A stretch of 64,000 nucleotides of DNA from a virus. The DNA is taken from IMG/VR virus record IMGVR_UViG_3300045988_079665. One strand, given 5' to 3'. This document shows positions 1,179-32,262 of the stretch, piece by piece. Positions within the stretch are counted from its first letter, which is position 1; each line of letters begins with the position of its first letter. The position numbers and the translations under genes were made by a program. The notes beneath the pieces were generated by a model. It was not told the DNA's origin. It worked only from the letters and a program-made list of their open reading frames with translations, and ran no database searches.

Positions 1179-2018
1179 TTAAAAATTCACAACACTCATA
1201 GCGTTAATTGCACGCTGTTCAGTGCGCTTAATATATCTGTTTGCCGTAATAGCAATAGACGAATGCCCCATTGCTTTACTAATGACCTCAATCGGCACAT
1301 CAGCCTCAGACATCATCGTAGCGAATGTGCGGCGCATCGTGTGATTGCTAATATGCAATTCTTCCCAATTCTCAATACCAGCTTTTCTAGCTGCTACCTT
1401 GAGCATAGCACTGGTATTCTTTCCGTCCATCTTCTTGGACTGATTACCAACGAATAGGTATTCGCAGCCATCTTTGCGCTCGTTGATAATATAGCTATCA
1501 ATCAACTTAATTGTCTCATCGCCTAGACCAATCAATCTATCCTTATCGCCCTTGCCGCGAATGACCAGCACATTGTTTGCGCGGCTTTCATACTGTTCAA
1601 GTGTGATATTAAGCAATTCGTGAATACGCAATCCAGTCTGTGCAAGCATCGTAATAATTGCTTTATTACGCAAATTGGTTGCCGCATTGACCATTGCTCT
1701 AACCTGTTCACCAGTTAGCGCGGACTGCTCCCGGTTCTTGATAGCAGGAGCTTCAAGAAATTCAGCAGGATTGCGACTAATAAATTCATTCCGATAGAGG
1801 AATTTGAAATATTCACGAACGGCAGATGTTCTCTGGGCAACAGATGCAGAGCTGAGATTACTCATGTTGGACTGCCACAACTCAAGGTCAATCGCCTTGA
1901 TTTCAGATTCAGGCTTGTTGACATATTCCAAGCAATTTTCAATCGACTTGGCATATTCACGAATCGTTCCCTCGCTACGATGCTTTGCTTTCAGACTCAT
2001 AATAAACAGTTCATTCAT
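1179..2018 (-). CDS. int: tyrosine recombinase / phage integrase
   Basis: C-terminal catalytic signature HTMRRTFAT ... GHSSIAITANRY (XerC/D-like). Start moved from track ATG 2060 to ATG 2018, which has AAGGAG 8 nt upstream and lies downstream of the promoter at 2048..2076. Confidence 0.9.
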   Translation of the reverse strand: MNELFIMSLKAKHRSEGTIREYAKSIENCLEYVNKPESEIKAIDLELWQSNMSNLSSASVAQRTSAVREYFKFLYRNEFISRNPAEFLEAPAIKNREQSALTGEQVRAMVNAATNLRNKAIITMLAQTGLRIHELLNITLEQYESRANNVLVIRGKGDKDRLIGLGDETIKLIDSYIINERKDGCEYLFVGNQSKKMDGKNTSAMLKVAARKAGIENWEELHISNHTMRRTFATMMSEADVPIEVISKAMGHSSIAITANRYIKRTEQRAINAMSVVNF

Positions 2019-2047
2019 AATATTCAGCTCCTTCATTTGATGATTTA

Positions 2048-2076
2048 AGTATAGCACCATAGCGGCGATTTGTCAA
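2048..2076 (-). promoter_or_regulatory. sigma70-type promoter TTGACA-17-TATACT
   Basis: Read on the minus strand: -35 at 2071..2076, -10 at 2048..2053. The TGA stop of ORF 2073..2477 lies inside the -35 hexamer. Confidence 0.75.
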
Positions 2077-2477
2077 GTATTATTTTTAACTTTCTTAATC
2101 ATCTCATCATATTTCCCACCAGATAAAACTCGTTCACACTCTTCAATGTTCTGTGTAAAATAGTAAATCGCTGGAATGTTATAGGCTTTACTTTCCCATT
2201 TGCGGAGCGATACGCCCTTTTCAACACAATACCAATCAATAGAAATAATGTTCTGAAATGGATAAGCAGTTTCGCCTACCATAATATATCCCTCATGTTT
2301 TATATCGATCATAATCCATTCAGGAATACTACATCTGATTGTATTTGGGTCAATGTAAAATTTATGCCTAAATGAATGCTCATCACCATCTAAGGTCTTA
2401 AATGTCGCGCCCCATTTTTCAACAATTACAAAATCAGTTGGCTTGTATTTCTTTTCTCGTTTCTTAAATAATATCAT
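2073..2477 (-). CDS. hypothetical protein (134 aa)
   Basis: Intact ORF; RBS-like AAAGGAAAAG upstream. Confidence 0.6.
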   Translation of the reverse strand: MILFKKREKKYKPTDFVIVEKWGATFKTLDGDEHSFRHKFYIDPNTIRCSIPEWIMIDIKHEGYIMVGETAYPFQNIISIDWYCVEKGVSLRKWESKAYNIPAIYYFTQNIEECERVLSGGKYDEMIKKVKNNT

Positions 2478-2505
2478 ATATTCACCACCATTCTTTTCCT
2501 TTAGA

Positions 2506-2539
2506 AAAATCCCTATAATCTTTCGACCATAGGGATTTT
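2506..2539 (-). terminator. hairpin terminator after hup
   Basis: 11-bp perfect stem aaaatccctat/atagggatttt with a 12-nt loop, T-rich on the exit side of the minus strand. Confidence 0.5.
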
Positions 2540-2553
2540 AACAGGCGGATTAT

Positions 2554-2829
2554 TTACTCATTGATTTCCGCCTTCAATGTACTTGTTGGCTTAAATGCCA
2601 AAGCATACTTGGCAGGAACTTCAATGGTTTCACCAGTCTGTGGATTACGAGCCGTTCTTGCATCTCTCAGCTTAGTTGTGAACTTGCCAAAGCCATGAAT
2701 CACAACGTCCTCATGCTGGACTAGACTGCGCTTTACATAATCAATGAACGTGTCTACGATTTCAGTTGTGTCCTTGACAGTATTTTCTGTGCTATCTGCT
2801 ACGAACTTAATTAGTTCCTTCTTTGTCAT
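2554..2829 (-). CDS. hup: HU/IHF-family DNA-binding protein
   Basis: 91 aa with the typical HU pattern MTKKELI...GFGKF...R.ARNPQTGE.I.VPA...F. Confidence 0.9.
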   Translation of the reverse strand: MTKKELIKFVADSTENTVKDTTEIVDTFIDYVKRSLVQHEDVVIHGFGKFTTKLRDARTARNPQTGETIEVPAKYALAFKPTSTLKAEINE

Positions 2830-3368
2830 AATTTCCTTTTAATTTCCTTTCGATTTCTAATAAAATTTTATTAAAACAAGTCGCAATGTTCATGCGCATA
2901 TTGACTTGATATATAGGGTTATTTTGTCGCACTATTAACTACTTACAGGTACTCACTTCACCAAGCCCTATACTATTTGCGCGGAATAGGATTATCACCA
3001 CACTATAAGCACATTTTCCAGTTTTGCTCTTCGGATGGTACTAGATGAGATTCGACCAACAGCCAACCTTAGCAGTGACGCGCGTTATTTACTAAGGATT
3101 TTTAGAATTGCCACACTCTCTACAAATTCATGTTAAATTGAATTTACAGTTGCGCAACCATCTTAAAATCAAGAGTGTGGCGACGTTGCCTCATAGCATC
3201 AAGTGGTCAGCTATCAACTATTCAGCAACTAGCATTATAACCTATAAACTAGACTATCCGCAGTGACCAAATCTTGAGGACTGTCTTACAAAGCTAGGAT
3301 TTTCGGCTTTTCCACCAGACGGCTATCAAGTGTGCTTACAATGCTAGTAGAGGCATGATAGACGTTTT

Positions 3369-3441
3369 TGACCGTGGTAGGATTCGAACCTACATCTCAT
3401 CCGCTATGAACGGAGAGTATTACCAATTAGGAGACGCGGTC
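3369..3441 (-). tRNA. tRNA-like element, anticodon CAU (Met/Ile2 type), D-stem unpaired
   Basis: Canonical T-arm GTAGGTTCGAATCCTAC, 6/7 acceptor pairs, anticodon loop TTCATAG. The D-arm has the GG but no stem pairing; no CCA encoded. Confidence 0.55.
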
Positions 3442-3448
3442 ATATGGA

Positions 3449-3562
3449 AATGGGCTTTAAGCGTCAACCCATTAGAAGCATTGGATTCCTATTCAGTTTA
3501 TTAAGTCGTATGTATCCAACAACCAGTGGACTTTGGTAATGGGCTTTAAAGATAAACCCATT
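3449..3562 (-). repeat. two paralogous 25-nt hairpins (3449..3473 and 3538..3562)
   Basis: aatgggctttaa(g/a)...aacccatt occurs twice, 89 nt apart; each folds into an 8-9 bp stem. Confidence 0.7.
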
Positions 3563-3880
3563 AGAACTAATCAGCAAGTCTACACTCTAACCTAGTCCTA
3601 AGACTGCTAGAACCTCTCCACATTTTTGTATGCCTCGCCTCGACTTACTGATTGCAACTATAATTAGTATCCCTTAGTTGCCTAGGGGCCAATCCCTGCT
3701 TAATCCGTCTGGTTCTCGTTATCGACATGATTGACTGCATATGCCTTTATGCTGTTAAGCAATTTAATTTCCTCTCACCAGCTCGATTTGCATTTGATAA
3801 CGAAGTGCTTATGACCAATTCTCTTCTCCGTATTAGTAGTCTATAAACCAGCCACTATATATCGTTTCAAGTGGACTTAA

Positions 3881-3959
3881 TGGTGCGGGATAGGAAAGTC
3901 AAATCCCTACGCCTTACGGATTTTGAATCCGCTCCCTCTGCCGATTGGGGTACCGAGCC
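3881..3959 (-). tRNA. possible degenerate tRNA-like element (anticodon-like loop TTCAAAA, CAA)
   Basis: Good anticodon-type arm GCGGA/TCCGT and an encoded CCA-like end, but the acceptor has 5/7 pairs and the T-arm is non-canonical. Confidence 0.25.
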
Positions 3960-4637
3960 ATATTTATCTTAAGCCGACTTTCTACCTCATAGCTATTTCT
4001 AGCATCGGCTCGTGAATGATGTTTACATATGATGTGCTATCACGCCAAAAAATCCATGTTGCTAAGGCATATCCCAACACACAACATAATGCTTAGCAAG
4101 ACAAATTTGTGTGCCAGTAGTCGCTAACTACTCTTGGGAACAAGTGAATATCGAACTACCATTTCTGGACGGTGCGACCGATTTATTCTTGTGCAAAGCA
4201 CTATGTTCATTCACTGTTAGTGACTCGCGATCAGGCTTCCTCTGATTTAACTGTCACCATTGCCACGATTTACTCCTTAGACGATGGCTGCCTCTAAGCC
4301 AACATTTCATATGTATGTAATATCCTTATATCACCTTTGCCGTTATGTTTTTGCCCTCATGCTAACGGAACACGCTCAGGCGCGACCCCAATTCTCTATA
4401 AGCTATCTGCCGCTTCTCAAACTCTGCACAGACCTGCTTCACAGGCGTGATATAGATTTGACGGTTATCTTCAAATCCGGTCGGATATTATAAACGATGG
4501 CTGTTCATCTCACTCCATTTACTACTGCTCCTGTGTTCCAAAGATTCTATATTGCTATTCATTATCGGCTTTGCCGTCCTGTCTTACCGGGCGCTCATAA
4601 TCTTTAGCTTCGTAGCACCATCATCTTTACATTCTCA

Positions 4638-4666
4638 ATTATAGCATACTTGATTTCATTTGTCAA
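4638..4666 (-). promoter_or_regulatory. sigma70-type promoter TTGACA-17-TATAAT
   Basis: Perfect consensus on the minus strand; fires into the 1.8-kb non-coding unit. Confidence 0.8.
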
Positions 4667-4809
4667 GTATTATTTTTGAAATTATTATTTATTTTTTCTA
4701 AGATTTCTTCCATTTGCACATTGGCTTTAGTCCAATGATATACGACTATCAGCATCCCAACTGCAACACCAACCGCAAATGAACCTAAACAAGCTAACAG
4801 AATAATCAT
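4663..4809 (-). CDS. possible small membrane protein (48 aa)
   Basis: Hand-translated MIILLACLGSFAVGVAVGMLIVVYHW...; its TGA stop is embedded in the -35 of the next promoter. No clear RBS. Confidence 0.35.
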   Translation of the reverse strand: MIILLACLGSFAVGVAVGMLIVVYHWTKANVQMEEILEKINNNFKNNT

Positions 4810-4871
4810 ACACTAATAATCAATAAATTTTCCCAAACTCTTTACCCTACAAACTTACCTTACCTAATTAA

Positions 4872-5111
4872 CTAATCCTGTTTTTCTTCATTATTAGTCA
4901 ATGATTTCTTTGCTAGACGAGCTGATTTGAGCCGTTCTGCCGCAGCTTGCTTCTGTTCATCGGTCATCTCTCTTTTTCTAAATGGATTGTTGCCTAGGCG
5001 AAACGGATATAAATTGCAATCGTGGATAGTACAATTCTTTACTTCATAAGCCGAGCCACAGCTACATTCTAAGCAGTGCTGACGGATGACTTTTAGTGGA
5101 GATTTTTCCAT
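4872..5111 (-). CDS. Cys-rich small protein (79 aa), probable zinc-binding
   Basis: CLECSCGS...C..H.C motif with a basic C-terminus; RBS GAGGTG upstream. Confidence 0.6.
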   Translation of the reverse strand: MEKSPLKVIRQHCLECSCGSAYEVKNCTIHDCNLYPFRLGNNPFRKREMTDEQKQAAAERLKSARLAKKSLTNNEEKQD

Positions 5112-5329
5112 ATTATCACCTCATTGATAATTGGTTCCGTTTATTATTATCTAATGCCTTATAAACGGTTTCCTTAAAATTTGGCCCCTACTTTATACAC
5201 TCATAGGTGAATTGTGGTCAGTTAACGATTGATTTCTGAACGAATTGATTTTTGGCTCATACAATCATAACCCGCAATTTCAACTGTTTGTTTAAGTGTT
5301 AACTGAAATTGCTTTAACTGCGATCACTT

Positions 5330-5422
5330 TGGTACTGGCGCTCGGACTCGAACCGAGATTTTGCGGCAATCGACCGCTAAACTGTGTATAGGACAGCTGG
5401 CTTACCATTAACCGACACCAGC
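5330..5422 (-). tRNA. type-II (long variable arm) tRNA with unusual anticodon loop CCUAUAC (apparent anticodon UAU)
   Basis: All four arms pair: acceptor 7 bp, D-stem GGTT/AGCC, anticodon stem GCTGT/ACAGT, T-arm CTCGG-TTCGAGT-CCGAG. It has a 23-nt variable arm with its own stem, discriminator A and an encoded CCA. Confidence 0.8.
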
Positions 5423-5520
5423 ATATTTGAGCCTTTTATCGTCATGCTCAGGACTATATTTTAGGAGGTTCACAATGAAGAACTGTAATTGAGATTACCC
5501 AATCTCTCAACCACATCTGT

Positions 5521-5549
5521 ATTATATCATATGAGTTGCTGTTTGTCAA
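5521..5549 (-). promoter_or_regulatory. sigma70-type promoter TTGACA-17-TATAAT
   Basis: Perfect consensus on the minus strand, about 95 nt upstream of the tRNA at 5330..5422. Confidence 0.8.
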
Positions 5550-5559
5550 GAATTATTTT

Positions 5560-5796
5560 TTATAGTTCTTGAAACATCTTTTCCCATTTTTCCATCCACA
5601 ACATAACTGGAGTTGTATCGCCTGTTCTATAAGTTTCATATGCGATAGCACCACGCACGAATGTCATAATACTAGACTTTGTAACAAGACCGGTTGGGTC
5701 TGGCAATTCTGTTTTACCAGTTTCATATTGCTTCATGATAAAATCTGTAAGTTTCTCATCCATTATATCACACCAACTTTCATTTGTCAAGAACAA
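5560..5796 (-). CDS. hypothetical protein (up to 78 aa; start uncertain)
   Basis: Intact ORF, but a consensus promoter (5762..5790) lies inside its first codons, so the true start may be an internal Met. Confidence 0.5.
   Translation of the reverse strand: MFLTNESWCDIMDEKLTDFIMKQYETGKTELPDPTGLVTKSSIMTFVRGAIAYETYRTGDTTPVMLWMEKWEKMFQEL
5762..5790 (-). promoter_or_regulatory. sigma70-type promoter TTGACA-17-TATAAT
   Basis: Perfect hexamers and spacer; the -35 contains the stop codon of small ORF 5787..5942. Confidence 0.55.
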
Positions 5797-5942
5797 ATTT
5801 TATTCATTTCAATAAATTTTTCACAAGCCCATCCATTTAGAACTGGTACTTCATCACAGTTGTAACCCCACAATCCAGTTTCACGGTCATAGCAATCTAC
5901 ATGACAAAGATAATCACCGATTTTGAAATAGGTATTAAGCAT
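5787..5942 (-). CDS. small Cys-rich protein (51 aa)
   Basis: Hand-translated MLNTYFKIGDYLCHVDCYDRETGLWGYNCDEVPVLNGWACEKFIEMNKICS; starts 3 nt after the stop of the upstream ORF. Confidence 0.4.
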   Translation of the reverse strand: MLNTYFKIGDYLCHVDCYDRETGLWGYNCDEVPVLNGWACEKFIEMNKICS

Positions 5943-5945
5943 ACG

Positions 5946-6158
5946 TTAATCCTCTACATAATATGTTTCACATACATCTTGTACATCATCTCTGTTCGAT
6001 TTAATATCTAATGTTGCATATGTTGGATTTGCGCCTTCATATACAATTTTTAGTTTGCAGTCAATCCCAAGATTTTTCATCACAGACTGAATCTTCTGAA
6101 ATGCCTTACCAAGCAATTCTTCCCTGAGCTGATATTCTTCCAATGTTTTCGCTACCAT
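5946..6158 (-). CDS. hypothetical protein (70 aa)
   Basis: Intact ORF in the operon; RBS AAGGAG upstream. Confidence 0.6.
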   Translation of the reverse strand: MVAKTLEEYQLREELLGKAFQKIQSVMKNLGIDCKLKIVYEGANPTYATLDIKSNRDDVQDVCETYYVED

Positions 6159-14128: not shown

Positions 14129-14549
14129 TGTAATAACCTCCAGATAATGTATTATTGCCTTGTGGCTTGTTTATAATATAGCAGACTATGCGCCATTTGT
14201 CTATCTTTTTATAATGTTTTTTTGTATATTTTAATATATGGTTATTATATATATTATATGTATATGCGATCAATTTACTACAATGTTATTGTAAGGCCAC
14301 TGGAGCCGTTTTAAGTAGTTTTCAGGTCGAGCCGTGTTTTTATATGCCTGATCTTTTTATTCCGTTATACAGTTTTTATACAGTTTGATTATTCATTGTT
14401 TTGATAGTAAATAGCTATGATATACACTTAGAAAGTTAGAATATACTAGAATTACATAGATTATTGTATAGATATGATATGCATATACTACATATTTATT
14501 CATTTATTGCTTATTGGTACAGTGTCTTAATAGTTATATAGATATAATT

Positions 14550-14684
14550 ATATCGATATTGATTATTGTATATTTTTATCGATATATTATATCGGTATAA
14601 TTATCTATATAATGTACTGATTATAATAGTTACAATATTGTAACTATGTATTACAAAGTAGTAACAGTATTTAAATATCGATAT
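14550..14684. repeat. cluster of AT-rich palindromes
   Basis: ATATCGATAT at 14550..14559 and 14675..14684; TATCGATA at 14577..14584; a perfect 22-bp palindrome atagttacaatattgtaactat at 14626..14647. Confidence 0.75.
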
Positions 14685-14921
14685 AATAGTATTGAATATG
14701 GTATCTTGTGTGGTATATTAGATGTTATTGTATGTTATAGTAGTTGGTATGATATAGATAATGGGGTAAATGATAGTAAATAGGGTTTATTGCATGGAGT
14801 AAATATGGTTTACCAAAAAGCGTGTATCAGGTAACACGTACGCGAGTATCTAATTTTTTGCAATCGATTTTGACAACAGAAATTTTAGACTATTCTAAAA
14901 ATCCGGAAAAATCAGTCTATA

Positions 14922-14944
14922 ATAATAGGAATCATTCCTATTAT
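14922..14944. repeat. perfect 23-bp palindrome ataataggaat-c-attcctattat
   Basis: 11-bp arms around a single central base. Confidence 0.8.
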
Positions 14945-15184
14945 AGCCCGATACGCCGGCAAAGTGCTATTTTCAGGCGTTTTTTAAGATGGTAGCATTT
15001 TCCAGTACGGGGGCTAGGATATGGATGGGAATGGTAGAAATGGAAGAAATTGGCATTTAGCACAACAAGCTACATACCATGTAATCACATCATAAATTCA
15101 TATAACCCACGCATCACTATTTAGCAACAATTCACACAACCCGTAACAGATATTATTTTCCCCATCATAATAATTTACAATTTG

Positions 15185-15216
15185 TTAACAAATAGATGAT
15201 TAGAATATGGTATAAT
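15185..15216 (+). promoter_or_regulatory. extended -10 promoter (TTAACA-20-TGgTATAAT), paralog of the promoter at 21437
   Basis: gaatatggtataat matches gaatatatggtataat of the 21437 promoter. A second TATAAT lies at 15256..15261. Confidence 0.5.
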
Positions 15217-15251
15217 TAGATGATGATAAAAAAGTTGTACAATCGCTGATA

Positions 15252-15279
15252 CTAATATAATACGTTAGTATTATTATAG
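15252..15279 (+). promoter_or_regulatory. leader hairpin or operator with apex aatac-gtta-gtatt
   Basis: The 14-nt core aatacgttagtatt is identical to that at 21480..21493. The lower stem differs in sequence but still pairs. Confidence 0.5.
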
Positions 15280-19874: not shown

Positions 19875-21035
19875 TTATTCATCCTCCTCATTTTCATCAC
19901 AATTTTCATCTACAAAATGGACATCTACATTGAAAATTTCTTTCAGAACATCAATAGCTTCTTTTGGCTCGATGCGGAAAAATTCTCTATCTGGGTTGAC
20001 CCGCTCTTTGTCGAAATATTTATGGATATTATTTTCCAGCTCAAAGCAATCATCACTGAATACAAAACAATGAGCATGATATGGTTCTGGCAAGCTGCTT
20101 GAGCTAAGTTCACGCACTCTTAATGCAGGATTCAATCTTCTAGTGCAACCGAGCTTTACCAATCCGGGCAAGCTTGGTGAACTAATTACATATAGCCAAC
20201 CAGCTTTGCTATGTGATTCACGATAAGCAATAGAATCGAGCCGCTTGTCAATACTAGCTAATTGAGATTTAATTCTATTACGCTCATCGTCTGTTAGCGC
20301 TTTATCAAACGCAATATTCATTGCTTTCTTTTCTTCAAGCAATTTAGCGCGTTCTCTAGCAATATCAGCAAGCAACTGTTCCTGTTCTTTTAATCTGCGC
20401 TTTTCTTCACGGATTCGCGCCTTTTCTTCTTTCTGTTTAACCTTAATTGCTAAGTTGATATATAGCATATCAAGCCGCGCCTTTACATATTCAGCATTGA
20501 GCGCCAATCCGACTTTATTTGCCTTAGACTGATAAGAATTAAATTTATTCTTAATCAATTCTTTGCTCTTAGCAATATTGCTTGTTGTTATGGATTTTTC
20601 TTTGTTGTCAATATATTCTGACATAGCATAGCACAATCCGCGCCCATATACATCCTGCATTTCTTTACCGCGCCTAGCAGAATCATTGAGGGTATATCCT
20701 TGCTCAATGCGATATAGACCAGTATTTACGGCAGATTCAATTTTGCTTTGTAGCTCATAGCGTTTATGCTCAAGTTCATCTAGTGAATCTTGATAATATG
20801 GGATATTATAATCCTGCATTTCTTCAATGGTATGGATTTTGCCATTTAGAGCATTAAGGACGGATTGAGCTTCTTTTGCGGCGATTTCGGCACTTTCTGC
20901 TGATTTACGGCTTTTTTCTTCTTTTGTTTCAAGAGAATCAATTTCCTTATACAACTCTTGAATCTTAAAGTCTAGTAAATCGATATAATGCTCAAGTTCT
21001 TTCTTCTTCTTGTTCATCTTGAAAATCTCGAACAC
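19875..21035 (-). CDS. coiled-coil (DUF4041-like) plus C-terminal T5orf172/MUG113 GIY-YIG-like domain protein
   Basis: Long heptad-rich N-terminal part. The C-terminal GWLYVISSPSLPGLVKLGCTRR...RVRELSS...FFRI fits the T5orf172 pattern. Confidence 0.65.
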   Translation of the reverse strand: MFEIFKMNKKKKELEHYIDLLDFKIQELYKEIDSLETKEEKSRKSAESAEIAAKEAQSVLNALNGKIHTIEEMQDYNIPYYQDSLDELEHKRYELQSKIESAVNTGLYRIEQGYTLNDSARRGKEMQDVYGRGLCYAMSEYIDNKEKSITTSNIAKSKELIKNKFNSYQSKANKVGLALNAEYVKARLDMLYINLAIKVKQKEEKARIREEKRRLKEQEQLLADIARERAKLLEEKKAMNIAFDKALTDDERNRIKSQLASIDKRLDSIAYRESHSKAGWLYVISSPSLPGLVKLGCTRRLNPALRVRELSSSSLPEPYHAHCFVFSDDCFELENNIHKYFDKERVNPDREFFRIEPKEAIDVLKEIFNVDVHFVDENCDENEEDE

Positions 21036-29349: not shown

Positions 29350-30174
29350 ATGTTTTGCCCATATTGCGGCAAGGAAAAGCAAGACAGCCAATTCTATAAA
29401 AGCCCAATCAAAACGGGCGAATATATTAAGCCATGCAAATCATGCGTAACTGAGATATATAAACAAGCTCTTGAATCTACTAAAGACCAAGGCGCGGCAT
29501 TATGGTCAACTTGTATGCAGACTGGCATTCCCATGAGACGTGCTGAATATACGGCTTGTCTTGATACGCTAGAAAAGGCGGCTAAAGGTAAAAAGCCTAG
29601 TCTATTTATGTTGTATCATACATACTTATCAACATCTCCTGATAAATTAACAGGCGTATGGGATAGCGATATGGAGTTGTCTAATTTCAAGGATTTGGGC
29701 GATGTAGCTAAGGGTGAAACAGATGAAGTTGCGCTTAAAGCAAGATGGCGCAAACAATGGGGCGGTGACTATGAAGATGAGGACTGTCAATGGCTAGATG
29801 ATATGTTCGATAGCTATACGGCAGATATATTTGAAATGGATACCGCTATGGAAATGCGTTATCGTGATCTGTGTAAGCTAGAACTTGAACAGTATAAAAA
29901 TGGTGTTAATAAAGACACTCAAGCACAGATCAAAACGTTAATGTCACTACTTAAACTTGATGATTTTAAGAGTAATCAGAAGTCGGACGCGGAACGAGCA
30001 TTTGAGAAACGTATAGCTTGGGTGGAATATACTAAACCATCTGAATGTGAAGATTTGACAAGATTCGTAGATATGGTTGGATATGAAAAGGACAAGGGTG
30101 AAAAGATGCGTAGCTTGCGCAACGCTGTTGCTGGCACTAGAGATTATCCAGCAATCCCGAAGGAGGAAGCATAA
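29350..30174 (+). CDS. terS: probable terminase small subunit with N-terminal zinc ribbon
   Basis: Lies immediately upstream of terL and overlaps it (ATAATG). N-terminal CPYCG...CKSC; assignment rests on position only. Confidence 0.5.
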   Translation: MFCPYCGKEKQDSQFYKSPIKTGEYIKPCKSCVTEIYKQALESTKDQGAALWSTCMQTGIPMRRAEYTACLDTLEKAAKGKKPSLFMLYHTYLSTSPDKLTGVWDSDMELSNFKDLGDVAKGETDEVALKARWRKQWGGDYEDEDCQWLDDMFDSYTADIFEMDTAMEMRYRDLCKLELEQYKNGVNKDTQAQIKTLMSLLKLDDFKSNQKSDAERAFEKRIAWVEYTKPSECEDLTRFVDMVGYEKDKGEKMRSLRNAVAGTRDYPAIPKEEA

Positions 30175-32018
30175 TGCGCTCTAGGATGGGCGGTCTTAGA
30201 GAATCATTTAAGGCTGATAAACTTCGCGCCGTATCTGGCATATCTAAAAAAATAGATAGTGCCTTAGAAGATAACATCATAGAGTGGACAACTCTATTCA
30301 GACGAAATTGGGATATATTTGCTGAATTTTATCTAGGGATTCCATTAAAACCATATCAGCGTCAGGCATTACATGAAATTGGTGTATCAGATGTGTACTT
30401 TTGGAGAGCAGGACGTGGCGGCGCAAAATCGTTTATTACTATGCTTGCGGCGGTCTGCAAGCTACTATTGTATCCAAACTGTCAGATAGTTATTACATCC
30501 TCTACTGTTGACCAAGCTAATAAGATGGTCAAAGAAAAGCTAGAGAAAGAATTGATAAAAAAGTTATCTCAACTACTTTTGCTTTATTATGAAAAAGACT
30601 GGATAAAAATAACAAAGCCGAACGATGGATATTATGTAGAGTGTACACTTAACAATTCGTCCATTACTGTTCTTGCCCCTGTTGAATCAGCTAGAGGTTC
30701 GCGTTCTAACTTTACCATATATGATGAGGTTGCCATTATGAAGAAAACGGCAATAGACCAAATCTTTGATGGGATGTTGTTTCCAAGGCAACCAAATTAT
30801 TTAAGCAATCCTGCATATTCTGGAAACAAGAGATGGATAGAAGAATCTAAGAGTATATATCTAACATCATCTAAGTTCAAGTTCCAGTGGTGGTATAGAT
30901 TGTGGTGCGATTGTGTAACAGGATATTATGTTGATAAGCGTACTAAATATGGCATATTCGCAACTGACTTTTTTGATAATATAGAAAATGGCTTAAAAAC
31001 ATGGGGTGATTATCGTAGAGCTAAAAGGCAGAACGACGATATATCATTTAGGACAGAATACTTAAATGAAGCGATTGGCGAGTCAGAGGATTCTTTCTTT
31101 AGTCTTGAATCATTTAAGGAAAATCAAGTTATTACAGATGCGTTTTGCCCACCAAAACCGATGGATTTATTGGTTGCTAGTGAATTAGAAGATGACGAGA
31201 AAAAAGACGATGAAGTGCGCCTCATTGTATCTGACTTTGCTTGGACAACAACTGGCAAAAAAGCAAACGAATCGGATAATAGCATTGCTATATGTATAAG
31301 AGCAAAGTGGAAAAAAGACCATTTTGATAAATATGTAGAATATATTGAACTGCTACCAACGGCAGATGACGCAGATGGTTGTGCTGATAGGTTAAAAGAA
31401 TTGTTTTGGTTGTATCAAGCAGACTATTTAGTGCCTGATGCTAGATCGGGTGGCGAAGCGGTTATGATAGCTTTATCTAAACCATATACCAATGAACGTT
31501 ATTCGGCGTTCATCAATAATCATGGCCTAACTATGGCTGATAAAAAAGAATATCATGTGGCTCGACCCGATAAGCTAGATTACTATAGAGCCAATGCAGT
31601 AGACCCAAATGCTTATCCTTGTATCATACCTATTGTTGGTAGTGAAACGCTCAATACGTCTTATTGGAAAGCAACTAAAATGTCACTTGAGAATAATCGT
31701 ATAAAATTCTTGATAGGGATGAGCGATAAGCAAGATGTTATTGTTGAAACTGGCGAATATTACAAATACACCGGCGAACAGATAGCAGATATACTTGCGC
31801 CTCATGGCAATACTGATTTGCTTATATCGGAGGCAGTTAATTTAACCACCATATTCAAAGGCGAAAACATTAAACTGGAAGCGCCGAGAACAGGGCATCG
31901 TGACCGTATTGTTACATTAGCTATGGGTATTTTAATATGTGATTATATTGAAAATGAATGGAATAGACAGAATCATGCTGAAGAATATGATTTAGATGAC
32001 ATTCAATTAGTATATTGA
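30174..32018 (+). CDS. terL: terminase large subunit
   Basis: Walker A-like AGRGGAKS and Walker B-like FTIYDEVA; 614 aa; directly upstream of the portal-sized gene. Confidence 0.85.
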   Translation: MRSRMGGLRESFKADKLRAVSGISKKIDSALEDNIIEWTTLFRRNWDIFAEFYLGIPLKPYQRQALHEIGVSDVYFWRAGRGGAKSFITMLAAVCKLLLYPNCQIVITSSTVDQANKMVKEKLEKELIKKLSQLLLLYYEKDWIKITKPNDGYYVECTLNNSSITVLAPVESARGSRSNFTIYDEVAIMKKTAIDQIFDGMLFPRQPNYLSNPAYSGNKRWIEESKSIYLTSSKFKFQWWYRLWCDCVTGYYVDKRTKYGIFATDFFDNIENGLKTWGDYRRAKRQNDDISFRTEYLNEAIGESEDSFFSLESFKENQVITDAFCPPKPMDLLVASELEDDEKKDDEVRLIVSDFAWTTTGKKANESDNSIAICIRAKWKKDHFDKYVEYIELLPTADDADGCADRLKELFWLYQADYLVPDARSGGEAVMIALSKPYTNERYSAFINNHGLTMADKKEYHVARPDKLDYYRANAVDPNAYPCIIPIVGSETLNTSYWKATKMSLENNRIKFLIGMSDKQDVIVETGEYYKYTGEQIADILAPHGNTDLLISEAVNLTTIFKGENIKLEAPRTGHRDRIVTLAMGILICDYIENEWNRQNHAEEYDLDDIQLVY

Positions 32019-32262
32019 TATTTGCCTATGAAGCGGCTACTATGTTGGTGTGTGGCTGTGGAGGTGCTATTAGGGTTGTGTGGTGAATATACTCCAAGTT
32101 CCAACTTAGGCTTAATTGAAAGCTGAAAATAAAAACACTCAAAAATATCAAACGAGCGGATAGGGAGGACAAGTAGCTCAATGAACTTTGGCATACGTTA
32201 ATGAAGTCCATAATCTAACCGCTCTAATATATAAACAATAAAACAAAGAAAGGAGGTTGAAG

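Follow-up and report, generated by a model that had tools for sequence, protein, structure and literature searches.

The stretch of DNA analysed here (IMG/VR record IMGVR_UViG_3300045988_079665; 64,000 nucleotides (nt), hereafter the window) comes from a human-gut phage of the Firmicutes type with a genome of about 100 kb, and it carries on its minus strand, at positions 2830-4666, a unit that does not code for protein. The unit starts with a consensus promoter, it is modular, and folds supported by covariation were obtained for its core domain b2 together with hairpin d, for domain c and for domain e2. With moderate confidence, and by analogy with the transfer RNA (tRNA) cluster of phage T4, the region can be read as a polycistronic operon of stable RNAs in which a tRNA island is combined with new structured RNAs. 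Undescribed structured RNA domains outnumber the tRNAs in this island, and these domains match no curated family.

The promoter (4638..4666, minus strand) agrees with the sigma-70/sigma-A consensus TTGACA-17-TG-TATAAT at 12 of 12 positions. Relatives have this promoter in front of the unit as well, and it is kept in all loci other than L002 and L003, two siblings described below. Transcription of the unit probably starts near position 4631, and the strength of the promoter together with its place in a leftward gene block suggests that it is probably an early promoter. It is one of three near-identical 45-nt consensus copies with a TG-extended -10 element (4633-4677, 5516-5560 and 5757-5801, all on the minus strand), and this set in the leftward gene block looks like a phage early-promoter family. 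The stop codon of an open reading frame (ORF) of 48 amino acids (4663-4809, minus strand), which is altered or absent in L001, L002 and L003, overlaps the -35 element of the unit promoter. At the other end of the unit lies hup (2554-2829, minus strand), the gene of an HU-type DNA-binding protein (PHROG 379, E-value 1.9e-27), preceded by its 5' region (2830-2911, minus strand). Directly upstream of hup, a consensus scan detected nothing stronger than a weak promoter match (9 of 12 positions), and it detected no terminator-like site in 2000-6000. When positions 2471-2560 were folded with RNAfold, an intrinsic terminator hairpin made of an A-tract, a stem and a U-tract was predicted 3' of hup (approximately 2503-2539, minus strand), which the consensus scan had missed because the stem is AT-rich; this hairpin is the likely end of the transcription unit. 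Since the scan gave no internal terminator-like site and only a weak promoter match in front of hup, the RNA array is probably co-transcribed with hup as one transcription unit. The GC content is 0.40-0.44 within the unit and 0.33-0.38 in the flanks. The perfect promoter, the hup start at 2829 and a GC content above that of the neighbouring genes had all been proposed in an earlier reading of the letters alone (the original prediction), and all three were confirmed.

The unit is the largest ORF-free stretch of the window. On the minus strand of 2830-4666 the longest open stretch is 41-42 codons, which agrees with the earlier statement that these 1.8 kb hold no credible ORF. TAA-, TAG- and TGA-type stops are all frequent in all six frames, so that reassignment of a stop codon cannot rescue a gene; a recoded gene was also considered and rejected, because read-through of a single type of stop gives at most about 100 codons and all stops are frequent everywhere. 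An ORF on the plus strand (4284-4493, 69 amino acids) was discarded, as it bridges the border of b2 with the optional domain c. Insertions and deletions of 1, 4 and 7 nt among relatives in the core b2 exclude coding. About 150 of the 1555 pair cells of the core (about a tenth) are G.U; the opposite strand would have C.A mismatches at these places, which identifies the minus strand as the functional one. Intact protein genes at this locus in related phages, which the original prediction had named among the observations that would speak against it, were not found: apart from inserted HNH genes, no relative has a protein gene at the position of the unit.

The relatives were collected by exact look-up of the HU protein and by DNA-pattern scans covering IMG/VR and metagenome contigs, which yielded about 60 related loci on human-gut phage contigs of about 90-100 kb. 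Module coverage was counted by BLAST over 62 loci unless otherwise given. The shortest complete unit has 504 nt (L057) and the longest 1767 nt (L038), a 3.5-fold difference, and the modules are combined in almost every way; only b2 is universal and d nearly so. The siblings L002 and L003 share both flanks with the window and lack the unit, about 92 bp replacing window positions 2912-4802. This sequence (L002 8727-8819, L003 9484-9576) stands in place of the unit, its promoter and the 48-amino-acid ORF, resembles the 5' end of a P-loop protein gene (MKVVVGNRGSGVTT...) and, judging by that resemblance, is probably a recombination scar. Optional cassettes, the range of unit lengths and two siblings without the unit do not fit the idea, put forward at the outset, of one large RNA of about 1.8 kb. 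Genes for homing endonucleases of the HNH_3 type occur inside the RNA island of L008 (4859-5413) and L012 (4775-5329) and beside the island of L005 (3502-4215). An extra optional module of about 200-240 nt, which is missing from the window, was seen between domain a and the core in L001 (8074-8312); it is GC-richer, has GNRA-capped hairpins and no Rfam match, and has kin among the inserts of L005, L016 and L033.

The family appears to be confined to a narrow group. The large terminase of the phage shares about 39% identity with those of Enterocloster and Thomasclavelia phages, a distant relationship. Comparison of the unit with 50,697 phage records by blastn gave no match, and a megablast search with 20 kb of the window gave only a 230-bp match. 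Widening the search with a gapped structural pattern recovered the same phage group and three chance matches in coding sequence, and a pattern derived from e2 recovered the same contigs only. Two exact-pattern scans of 185,579 species genomes returned nothing, so that no host or prophage copy was identified. The covariance model of b2 and d (R1) found nothing in a 50-kb half of Enterocloster phage PMBT24, which carries a XerD-like recombinase gene of the kind that adjoins hup in this window. A match of R1 at window positions 20735-20814, with 13.6 bits, was taken as noise. As far as the exact-pattern scans and one covariance-model search can tell, the domains would thus be restricted to one lineage of gut phages.

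Covariation among related intergenic regions, one of the checks suggested together with the original prediction, revealed compensatory pairs in b2 with d (12 of 60), in c (8 of 58) and in e2 (6 of 54). The core domain b2 (4317..4491, minus strand) is about 175 nt long, has about eight helices, is closed by AUAAUAUCC/GGAUAUUA and is present in 62 of 62 loci. Hairpin d (3967..4015, minus strand; 60-61 of 62 loci) is 49 nt long; its stem carries a GAAA cap, its 3' bulge is rich in purines, and the next tRNA or tRNA-like element follows 8-10 nt downstream. Both b2 and d always precede the tRNAs, at a distance of 10 to 380 nt from the start site. An alignment of b2 and d together (A4; 26 distinct sequences, with domain c cut out where present) was folded with RNAalifold, which predicted 60 pairs, arranged in a closed domain of several helices and in the hairpin of d, with standard pairs in 99.4% of the cells. 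The number of compensatory pairs fell to 1.5 in shuffled alignments, with none of 500 shuffles reaching 12, and to 1-3 in slid controls. Two of the compensatory pairs, G-C to A-U and A-U to G-C, are in hairpin d, which is matched by R1. By eye, d has some likeness to the CR-I/CR-V elements of RNase P and b2 to a T-box motif; both identifications were rejected, as the corresponding Rfam models gave no match at E<=10.

Domain c (4025..4314, minus strand) is an optional structured cassette of 290 nt situated just 3' of b2; about 21 of 45 loci have it, and its closing helix is ACAUAUGA/UCAUAUGU. Its structure, with 58 pairs in 11 helices, was drawn by hand on an alignment of 14 distinct sequences (A5); shuffled alignments contained 2.1 compensatory pairs and all six slid controls contained 0. 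Most of the compensatory changes come from two divergent loci. Within domain c, positions 4276..4305 (minus strand; AUGUUGGCUUAGAGGCAGCCAUCGUCUAAGG) form a near-exact copy of the helix-43 hairpin of 23S ribosomal RNA (rRNA) together with the 1082-1086 mini-hairpin, both from the GTPase-associated centre. The likeness was found by cmscan as a local match to the Rfam model LSU_rRNA_bacteria (39 nt, 22.2 bits, E-value 4.7e-4 in a 3.2-kb search) covering model positions 1098-1143, which comprise helix 43 and the start of helix 44. In the window 22 of the 23 nt of the hairpin core are matched. In L063 the element reads AUGUUGGCUUAGAAGCAGCCAUCAUUUAAAGAGU and agrees with 32 of 34 letters of the Rfam consensus, including all highly conserved (upper-case) positions; we take it to be identical to positions ~1057-1089 of the E. 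coli 23S rRNA. Two pairs of the hairpin covary among the loci (U.G/U-A/C-G and C-G/U-A), and because of this compensatory variation the element looks like a captured piece of rRNA that has been maintained as a structure. The 23S GTPase-associated centre (helices 43-44), the site of L11 and thiostrepton, shares with domain c the helix-43 hairpin and the adjacent 1082-1086 pair, whereas helix 42 is absent and helix 44, cut short in the cmscan alignment, is not recognisable. The match obtained therefore covers only part of the 58-nt L11-binding fold.

The 3' side of the unit is occupied by domain e2 (3105..3367, minus strand), a structured domain of about 260 nt that occurs in most relatives, its central part in 49-51 of 62 loci. 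The original prediction had noted here a perfect long-range helix of 10 bp, and the segment 3110-3119 (GCCACACTCT) is indeed the exact reverse complement of 3172-3181, the two closing a junction of about 75 nt. Of the ten pairs, nine are each retained in 21 or more of 22 distinct relatives, and the tenth is U-G, C-G or U-A. The 54 pairs drawn from an alignment of 22 sequences (A7) include a long-range helix of 10 bp, and the helix noted originally is confirmed there as well. A further helix on the 5' side of e2, read by eye, has its sequence entirely swapped in several variants and is nevertheless complementary. The domain is missing from the complete units of L057 and L017, and its halves are also found separately. 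Domain a (4493..4630, minus strand) is an optional, variable 5' domain, apparently closed by AUGAUGG/CCAUCAU, that is shortened, replaced or absent in relatives. Module f (2912..3104, minus strand) is a further non-coding cassette. Only four distinct copies of domain a were available, and a, x (described below) and f have too few distinct copies for covariation. At the position of module f, just upstream of the hup promoter, many relatives have a tRNA of 91-95 nt with an insert of about 20 nt (5827-5917 in L006, L009 and L012; 6864-6954 in L001; 8266-8360 in L033), which scores 30-37 bits and is called Thr-CGU by ARAGORN in some loci.

Two tRNA-like modules had been predicted inside the unit, and both are there, though in a degenerate form. 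The first, a tRNA-Met(CAU)-like element (3368..3442, minus strand) called by ARAGORN, reaches 28.7 bits with the Rfam tRNA model (RF00005), whose gathering score is 29. Its T arm is intact, the anticodon arm is kept, the acceptor stem has one mismatch (C6.A67) and the D stem is unpaired, its pairs being flagged by Rfam as non-canonical. In the L033 copy of this element, compensatory changes were read by eye in the acceptor and T stems. The second (3881..3958, minus strand; Rfam match 3884-3958, 20.4 bits, E-value 0.7) is a chimeric pseudo-tRNA with anticodon CAA and an encoded CCA; it was not called by ARAGORN, two of its acceptor pairs were flagged by Rfam and it fails as a tRNA. An alignment (A6) of this element showed that its 5' two-thirds correspond to the class-I CAA tRNA of L063, which scores 53.9 bits there, and its 3' third (T arm, 3' acceptor strand and CCA) to the class-II tRNA-Leu of L017. 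The element is thus a recombinant of two CAA tRNAs, and this explains why its acceptor stem is mismatched. In relatives, the slot that follows hairpin d holds either a class-II tRNA-Leu of 84-85 nt (CAA or UAA) or a class-I CAA tRNA of 77 nt, and in some loci another tRNA such as tRNA-Ile(UAU). The units of relatives contain two to four tRNA or tRNA-like elements, and the islands carry varying sets of Leu (CAA/UAA), Met, Thr, Ile, Val, Gly and Phe tRNAs. The 77-nt CAA tRNA has no long variable arm and was found in L063 (3945-4021), L015, L018, L021, L026, L027, L031, L039, L043, L047, L060 and L062; one may speculate that it is a replacement that resists nucleases cutting the variable loop.

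Between the two tRNA-like elements lies cassette x (3478..3880, minus strand), a non-coding insert of about 400 nt flanked by AAGUCCAC repeats. It was found in 13-14 of 62 loci, in copies that share at least 91% identity, and ends with a hairpin followed by ACCA (3534-3566) that belongs to a repeat family named D2. A second minihelix of the same family, a hairpin followed by UCCA (3445..3477, minus strand), is placed directly upstream of the Met-like element. The two hairpins are 85% identical, which accounts for the duplicated hairpins noticed originally, and hairpins of the 3445-3477 type also occur in L017 and L057. Upstream of the unit, a tRNA of 93 nt with anticodon UAU (5330-5422, minus strand; 45.6 bits) has its own perfect promoter (5549..5521, minus strand) and is kept in most relatives. 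It is unusual in having a hairpin of about 20 nt in the variable region, like a class-II arm, and a C instead of the usual U at position 33 of the anticodon loop (CCUAUAC).

Known RNA families were searched with Rfam cmscan, over the whole window at gathering thresholds and, with permissive filters and a limit of E<=10, over 2400-5600. Within the unit every family stays below its gathering score, and at E<=10 the only matches within 2830-4666 are the two tRNA-like elements and the local large-subunit rRNA match; in the 2400-5600 scan the tRNA model finds just three elements. GOLLD (RF01998), ROOL (RF03087), group I and group II introns, RNase P, transfer-messenger RNA (tmRNA) and T-box gave no match in the window or in the relatives. 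The suggestion that the unit is a candidate of the GOLLD/ROOL class therefore did not stand, since not even E<=10 yielded a match to either covariance model; what stood is a non-coding, promoter-driven structured RNA in a GOLLD/ROOL-like setting among phage tRNAs. Phages encode both GOLLD and ROOL close to tRNA islands, and the GOLLD linker sometimes contains tRNAs (PMC12286853). As a large structured non-coding RNA of phages, often near tRNA islands, GOLLD shares its setting with the unit, a trait that does not define the family. Also shared are a variable 5' part and the occasional presence of tRNAs in a linker (PMC12286853). In contrast, GOLLD has a universal 3' domain of about 400 nt, whereas the unit has a conserved core of about 225 nt (b2 and d) at its 5' side, and its 3' domain, e2, is missing from some complete units. 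ROOL is known from Firmicutes phages and prophages and from rumen or gut samples; it lies close to tRNAs and is possibly co-transcribed with them (PMC5737381, PMC12286853). The unit shares this setting; unlike ROOL, its domains are separable and optional, and each of those tested is closed by its own helix. Screens of IMG/VR and of the human gut by Fremin and co-workers list thousands of unnamed motifs, including tRNA-like ones (PMC10690425, PMC8040213). Pieces of the unit may be among them; the operon, its modular make-up and the rRNA-like hairpin do not figure in those descriptions of the catalogues that were available.

The closest characterised analogue is the tRNA cluster of T4, whose primary transcript is the precursor of eight tRNAs and of the species I and II RNAs, with segB inside (PMC2330249). 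The two systems have in common that tRNAs and non-tRNA stable RNAs would come from one transcript, that a homing-endonuclease gene lies within the island, as the HNH_3 genes do in L008 and L012, and that the region varies by cassette between related phages. The features of a T4-type tRNA island are found here, namely a common promoter, clustered tRNA and tRNA-like genes and, between them, non-tRNA domains that covary. There is no sequence relationship to the T4 cluster, and the differences are considerable. Here most of the sequence belongs to non-tRNA domains (about 1.5 of 1.8 kb), which at 175-290 nt are also larger and more elaborate, and the tRNAs of this copy are degenerate; the host group is Firmicutes-like and not Enterobacteria, and the endonuclease is HNH and not GIY-YIG.

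In the reading as an operon, the promoter at 4666 would drive a single untranslated transcript of the minus strand through the RNA modules and into hup, ending at 2503-2539. The modules would follow each other in the order a, b2, c, d and then tRNA or tRNA-like genes interleaved with x, e2 and f. By analogy with the T4 transcript, the tRNAs, the tRNA-like elements and the minihelices of the hairpin-NCCA type may serve as punctuation for RNase P and RNase Z, whose cleavage would free tRNAs and discrete stable RNAs. The island would evolve by exchange of cassettes, which could account for the chimeric pseudo-tRNA and for the HNH genes in relatives. Its products may act on the translation apparatus, the tRNAs supplementing or replacing those of the host, possibly against defences that cleave tRNA. 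Host factors would be the trans targets of the non-tRNA domains, among which domain c is a possible decoy of the GTPase-associated centre. A phage tRNA region has been described as an anti-defence locus against Septu (PMC13096335). It is tentatively conceivable, although on balance unlikely, that the unit represents a new modular class of phage RNA that targets host translation. In such a class the core would be a functional RNA, domain c a decoy that sequesters L11, a translational GTPase, a stringent-response factor or an effector of immunity or antibiotic action with specificity for this site, and the tRNA-like and hairpin-CCA elements either decoys or nuclease-resistant replacements of tRNAs that are targets of host defence, as exemplified by the 77-nt CAA tRNA of relatives.

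Several other explanations have to be weighed against a stable-RNA operon. The unit could be a single giant RNA that is the functional analogue of GOLLD or ROOL, with b2, d and e2 as the body (for example a multimeric cage or scaffold) and the tRNAs and cassettes as a linker. The probable presence of all parts on one transcript and the arrangement of two widely conserved structured domains on either side of a variable segment holding tRNAs fit this proposal, which appears nonetheless rather improbable: apart from the unmatched GOLLD and ROOL models, e2 is absent from the complete L057 and L017 units and its halves occur apart, a 3.5-fold variation in length and tested domains that close on themselves are what independent beads would give, and no long-range pairing between domains was seen, though no systematic search for it was made. 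Alternatively, b2 and d could be a leader acting in cis, either in processive antitermination, like the rrn leader or HK022 put, or in processing or stability, the rest being cargo. A long untranslated transcript is otherwise exposed to Rho, and such a leader would help RNA polymerase across about 1.8 kb of untranslated RNA to hup; the lack of a terminator-like site inside the unit in the scan, the absence of any other universal module and the constant position of b2 and d ahead of the tRNAs are consistent with it. This role is nevertheless doubtful, since no boxA-like or put-like sequence was recognised and there is no Rfam match, and known antitermination RNAs are far simpler than a domain of 175 nt with about eight helices and loops that do not vary. 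Moreover, hup in L002 and L003 lacks b2 and d upstream, and the fixed order may merely reflect common descent.

The two remaining alternatives deny the region a function as RNA. One of them holds that this is an ordinary tRNA array with spacers made up of tRNA genes in decay and of scars left by recombination, any structure being a functionless relic. The chimeric CAA element, the missing D stem of the Met-like element, the short repeats (AAGUCCAC) and hairpin-CCA remnants at the cassette joints and the dispensability of the unit would be expected under such decay. It is very unlikely all the same, because b2, c and e2 are unlike tRNA, their helices are kept by compensatory changes and their loops are invariant among 26 (b2 and d), 14 (c) and 22 (e2) distinct variants, and b2 and d persist in 62 and 60-61 of 62 loci while their surroundings are swapped. 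The other, a decayed or recoded protein gene or the remnant of a mobile intron or insertion sequence (IS), seems hardly credible. Beyond the missing annotation nothing speaks for it directly. Homing endonucleases and introns do occur in relatives of this phage group, but all three stops abound in the six frames, the relatives have no ORF here except for the HNH inserts, and frameshifting indels fall inside the conserved core. Introns were judged by a terminal G for group I and by GUGYG...AY for group II. The models of both groups gave no match, domain c ends in ...CAUCA/UAUG (the slash marks the border), with no terminal G and no GUGYG start, and a repeat search found no terminal inverted repeats. 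An intron of either group was likewise rejected for the optional inserts in general, on the lack of an Rfam match and on the borders of domain c (...GGAUAU/UACAUAC... and ...CAUCA/UAUGU). Taken together, covariation and the retention of b2 and d disfavour both decayed genes and junk spacers.

The reading of the region as an operon of stable RNAs has weak points of its own, which must be set against the evidence above. The transcription of the array, its cleavage and the stability of its products are steps that we infer. The folding energy of the unit, measured as minimum free energy (MFE), is not better than that of shuffled sequence (z = -0.18 and -1.11), and as folding energies are uninformative the case for structure rests on covariation. 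Most of the related sequences are at least 85-90% identical and the divergent loci L043, L064, L032 and L020 contribute most of the double changes; because the family is narrow, the covariation statistics depend on few divergent members. The hand-drawn structure of domain c was tested on the very sequences from which it had been derived. The helix-43 match is short (about 34 nt), and in L063, which is closer to the consensus, cmscan did not list it, a result attributed to the filters applied to a model of 2.9 kb. One tRNA-like element is chimeric and the other lacks a D stem, which makes a role in translation doubtful for this copy. Finally, the existence of sibling phages without the unit means that it is dispensable.

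To our knowledge, no function has been assigned to GOLLD, ROOL or the species I and II RNAs of T4, all of which have long been known. The locus adds at least three new covariation-supported domains to the RNAs found beside phage tRNA islands, and the approximately 60 close gut phages provide a natural series of presence and absence, of a sort that the known classes lack, in which essential parts can be separated from accessory ones. The structurally kept, near-exact copy of the helix-43 hairpin, another feature that those classes do not have, hints at a target, the ribosomal GTPase-associated centre, and thereby offers a concrete candidate partner. The locus also shows how recombination within islands yields pseudo-tRNAs that resemble "tRNA-like modules".

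Two further regions of the window deserve mention. A drum RNA (RF02958; 45 bits, gathering score 43) is located on the plus strand at 32023-32143, between the ORF of the large terminase (30174-32018) and the next large ORF. The second-largest ORF-free stretch (14274-15278) is AT-rich and dense in short direct and inverted repeats (TATCGATAT, TATAGATATAAT); since it coincides with the switch of gene orientation from minus to plus, it probably serves as an origin or as a divergent control region and not as an RNA gene.

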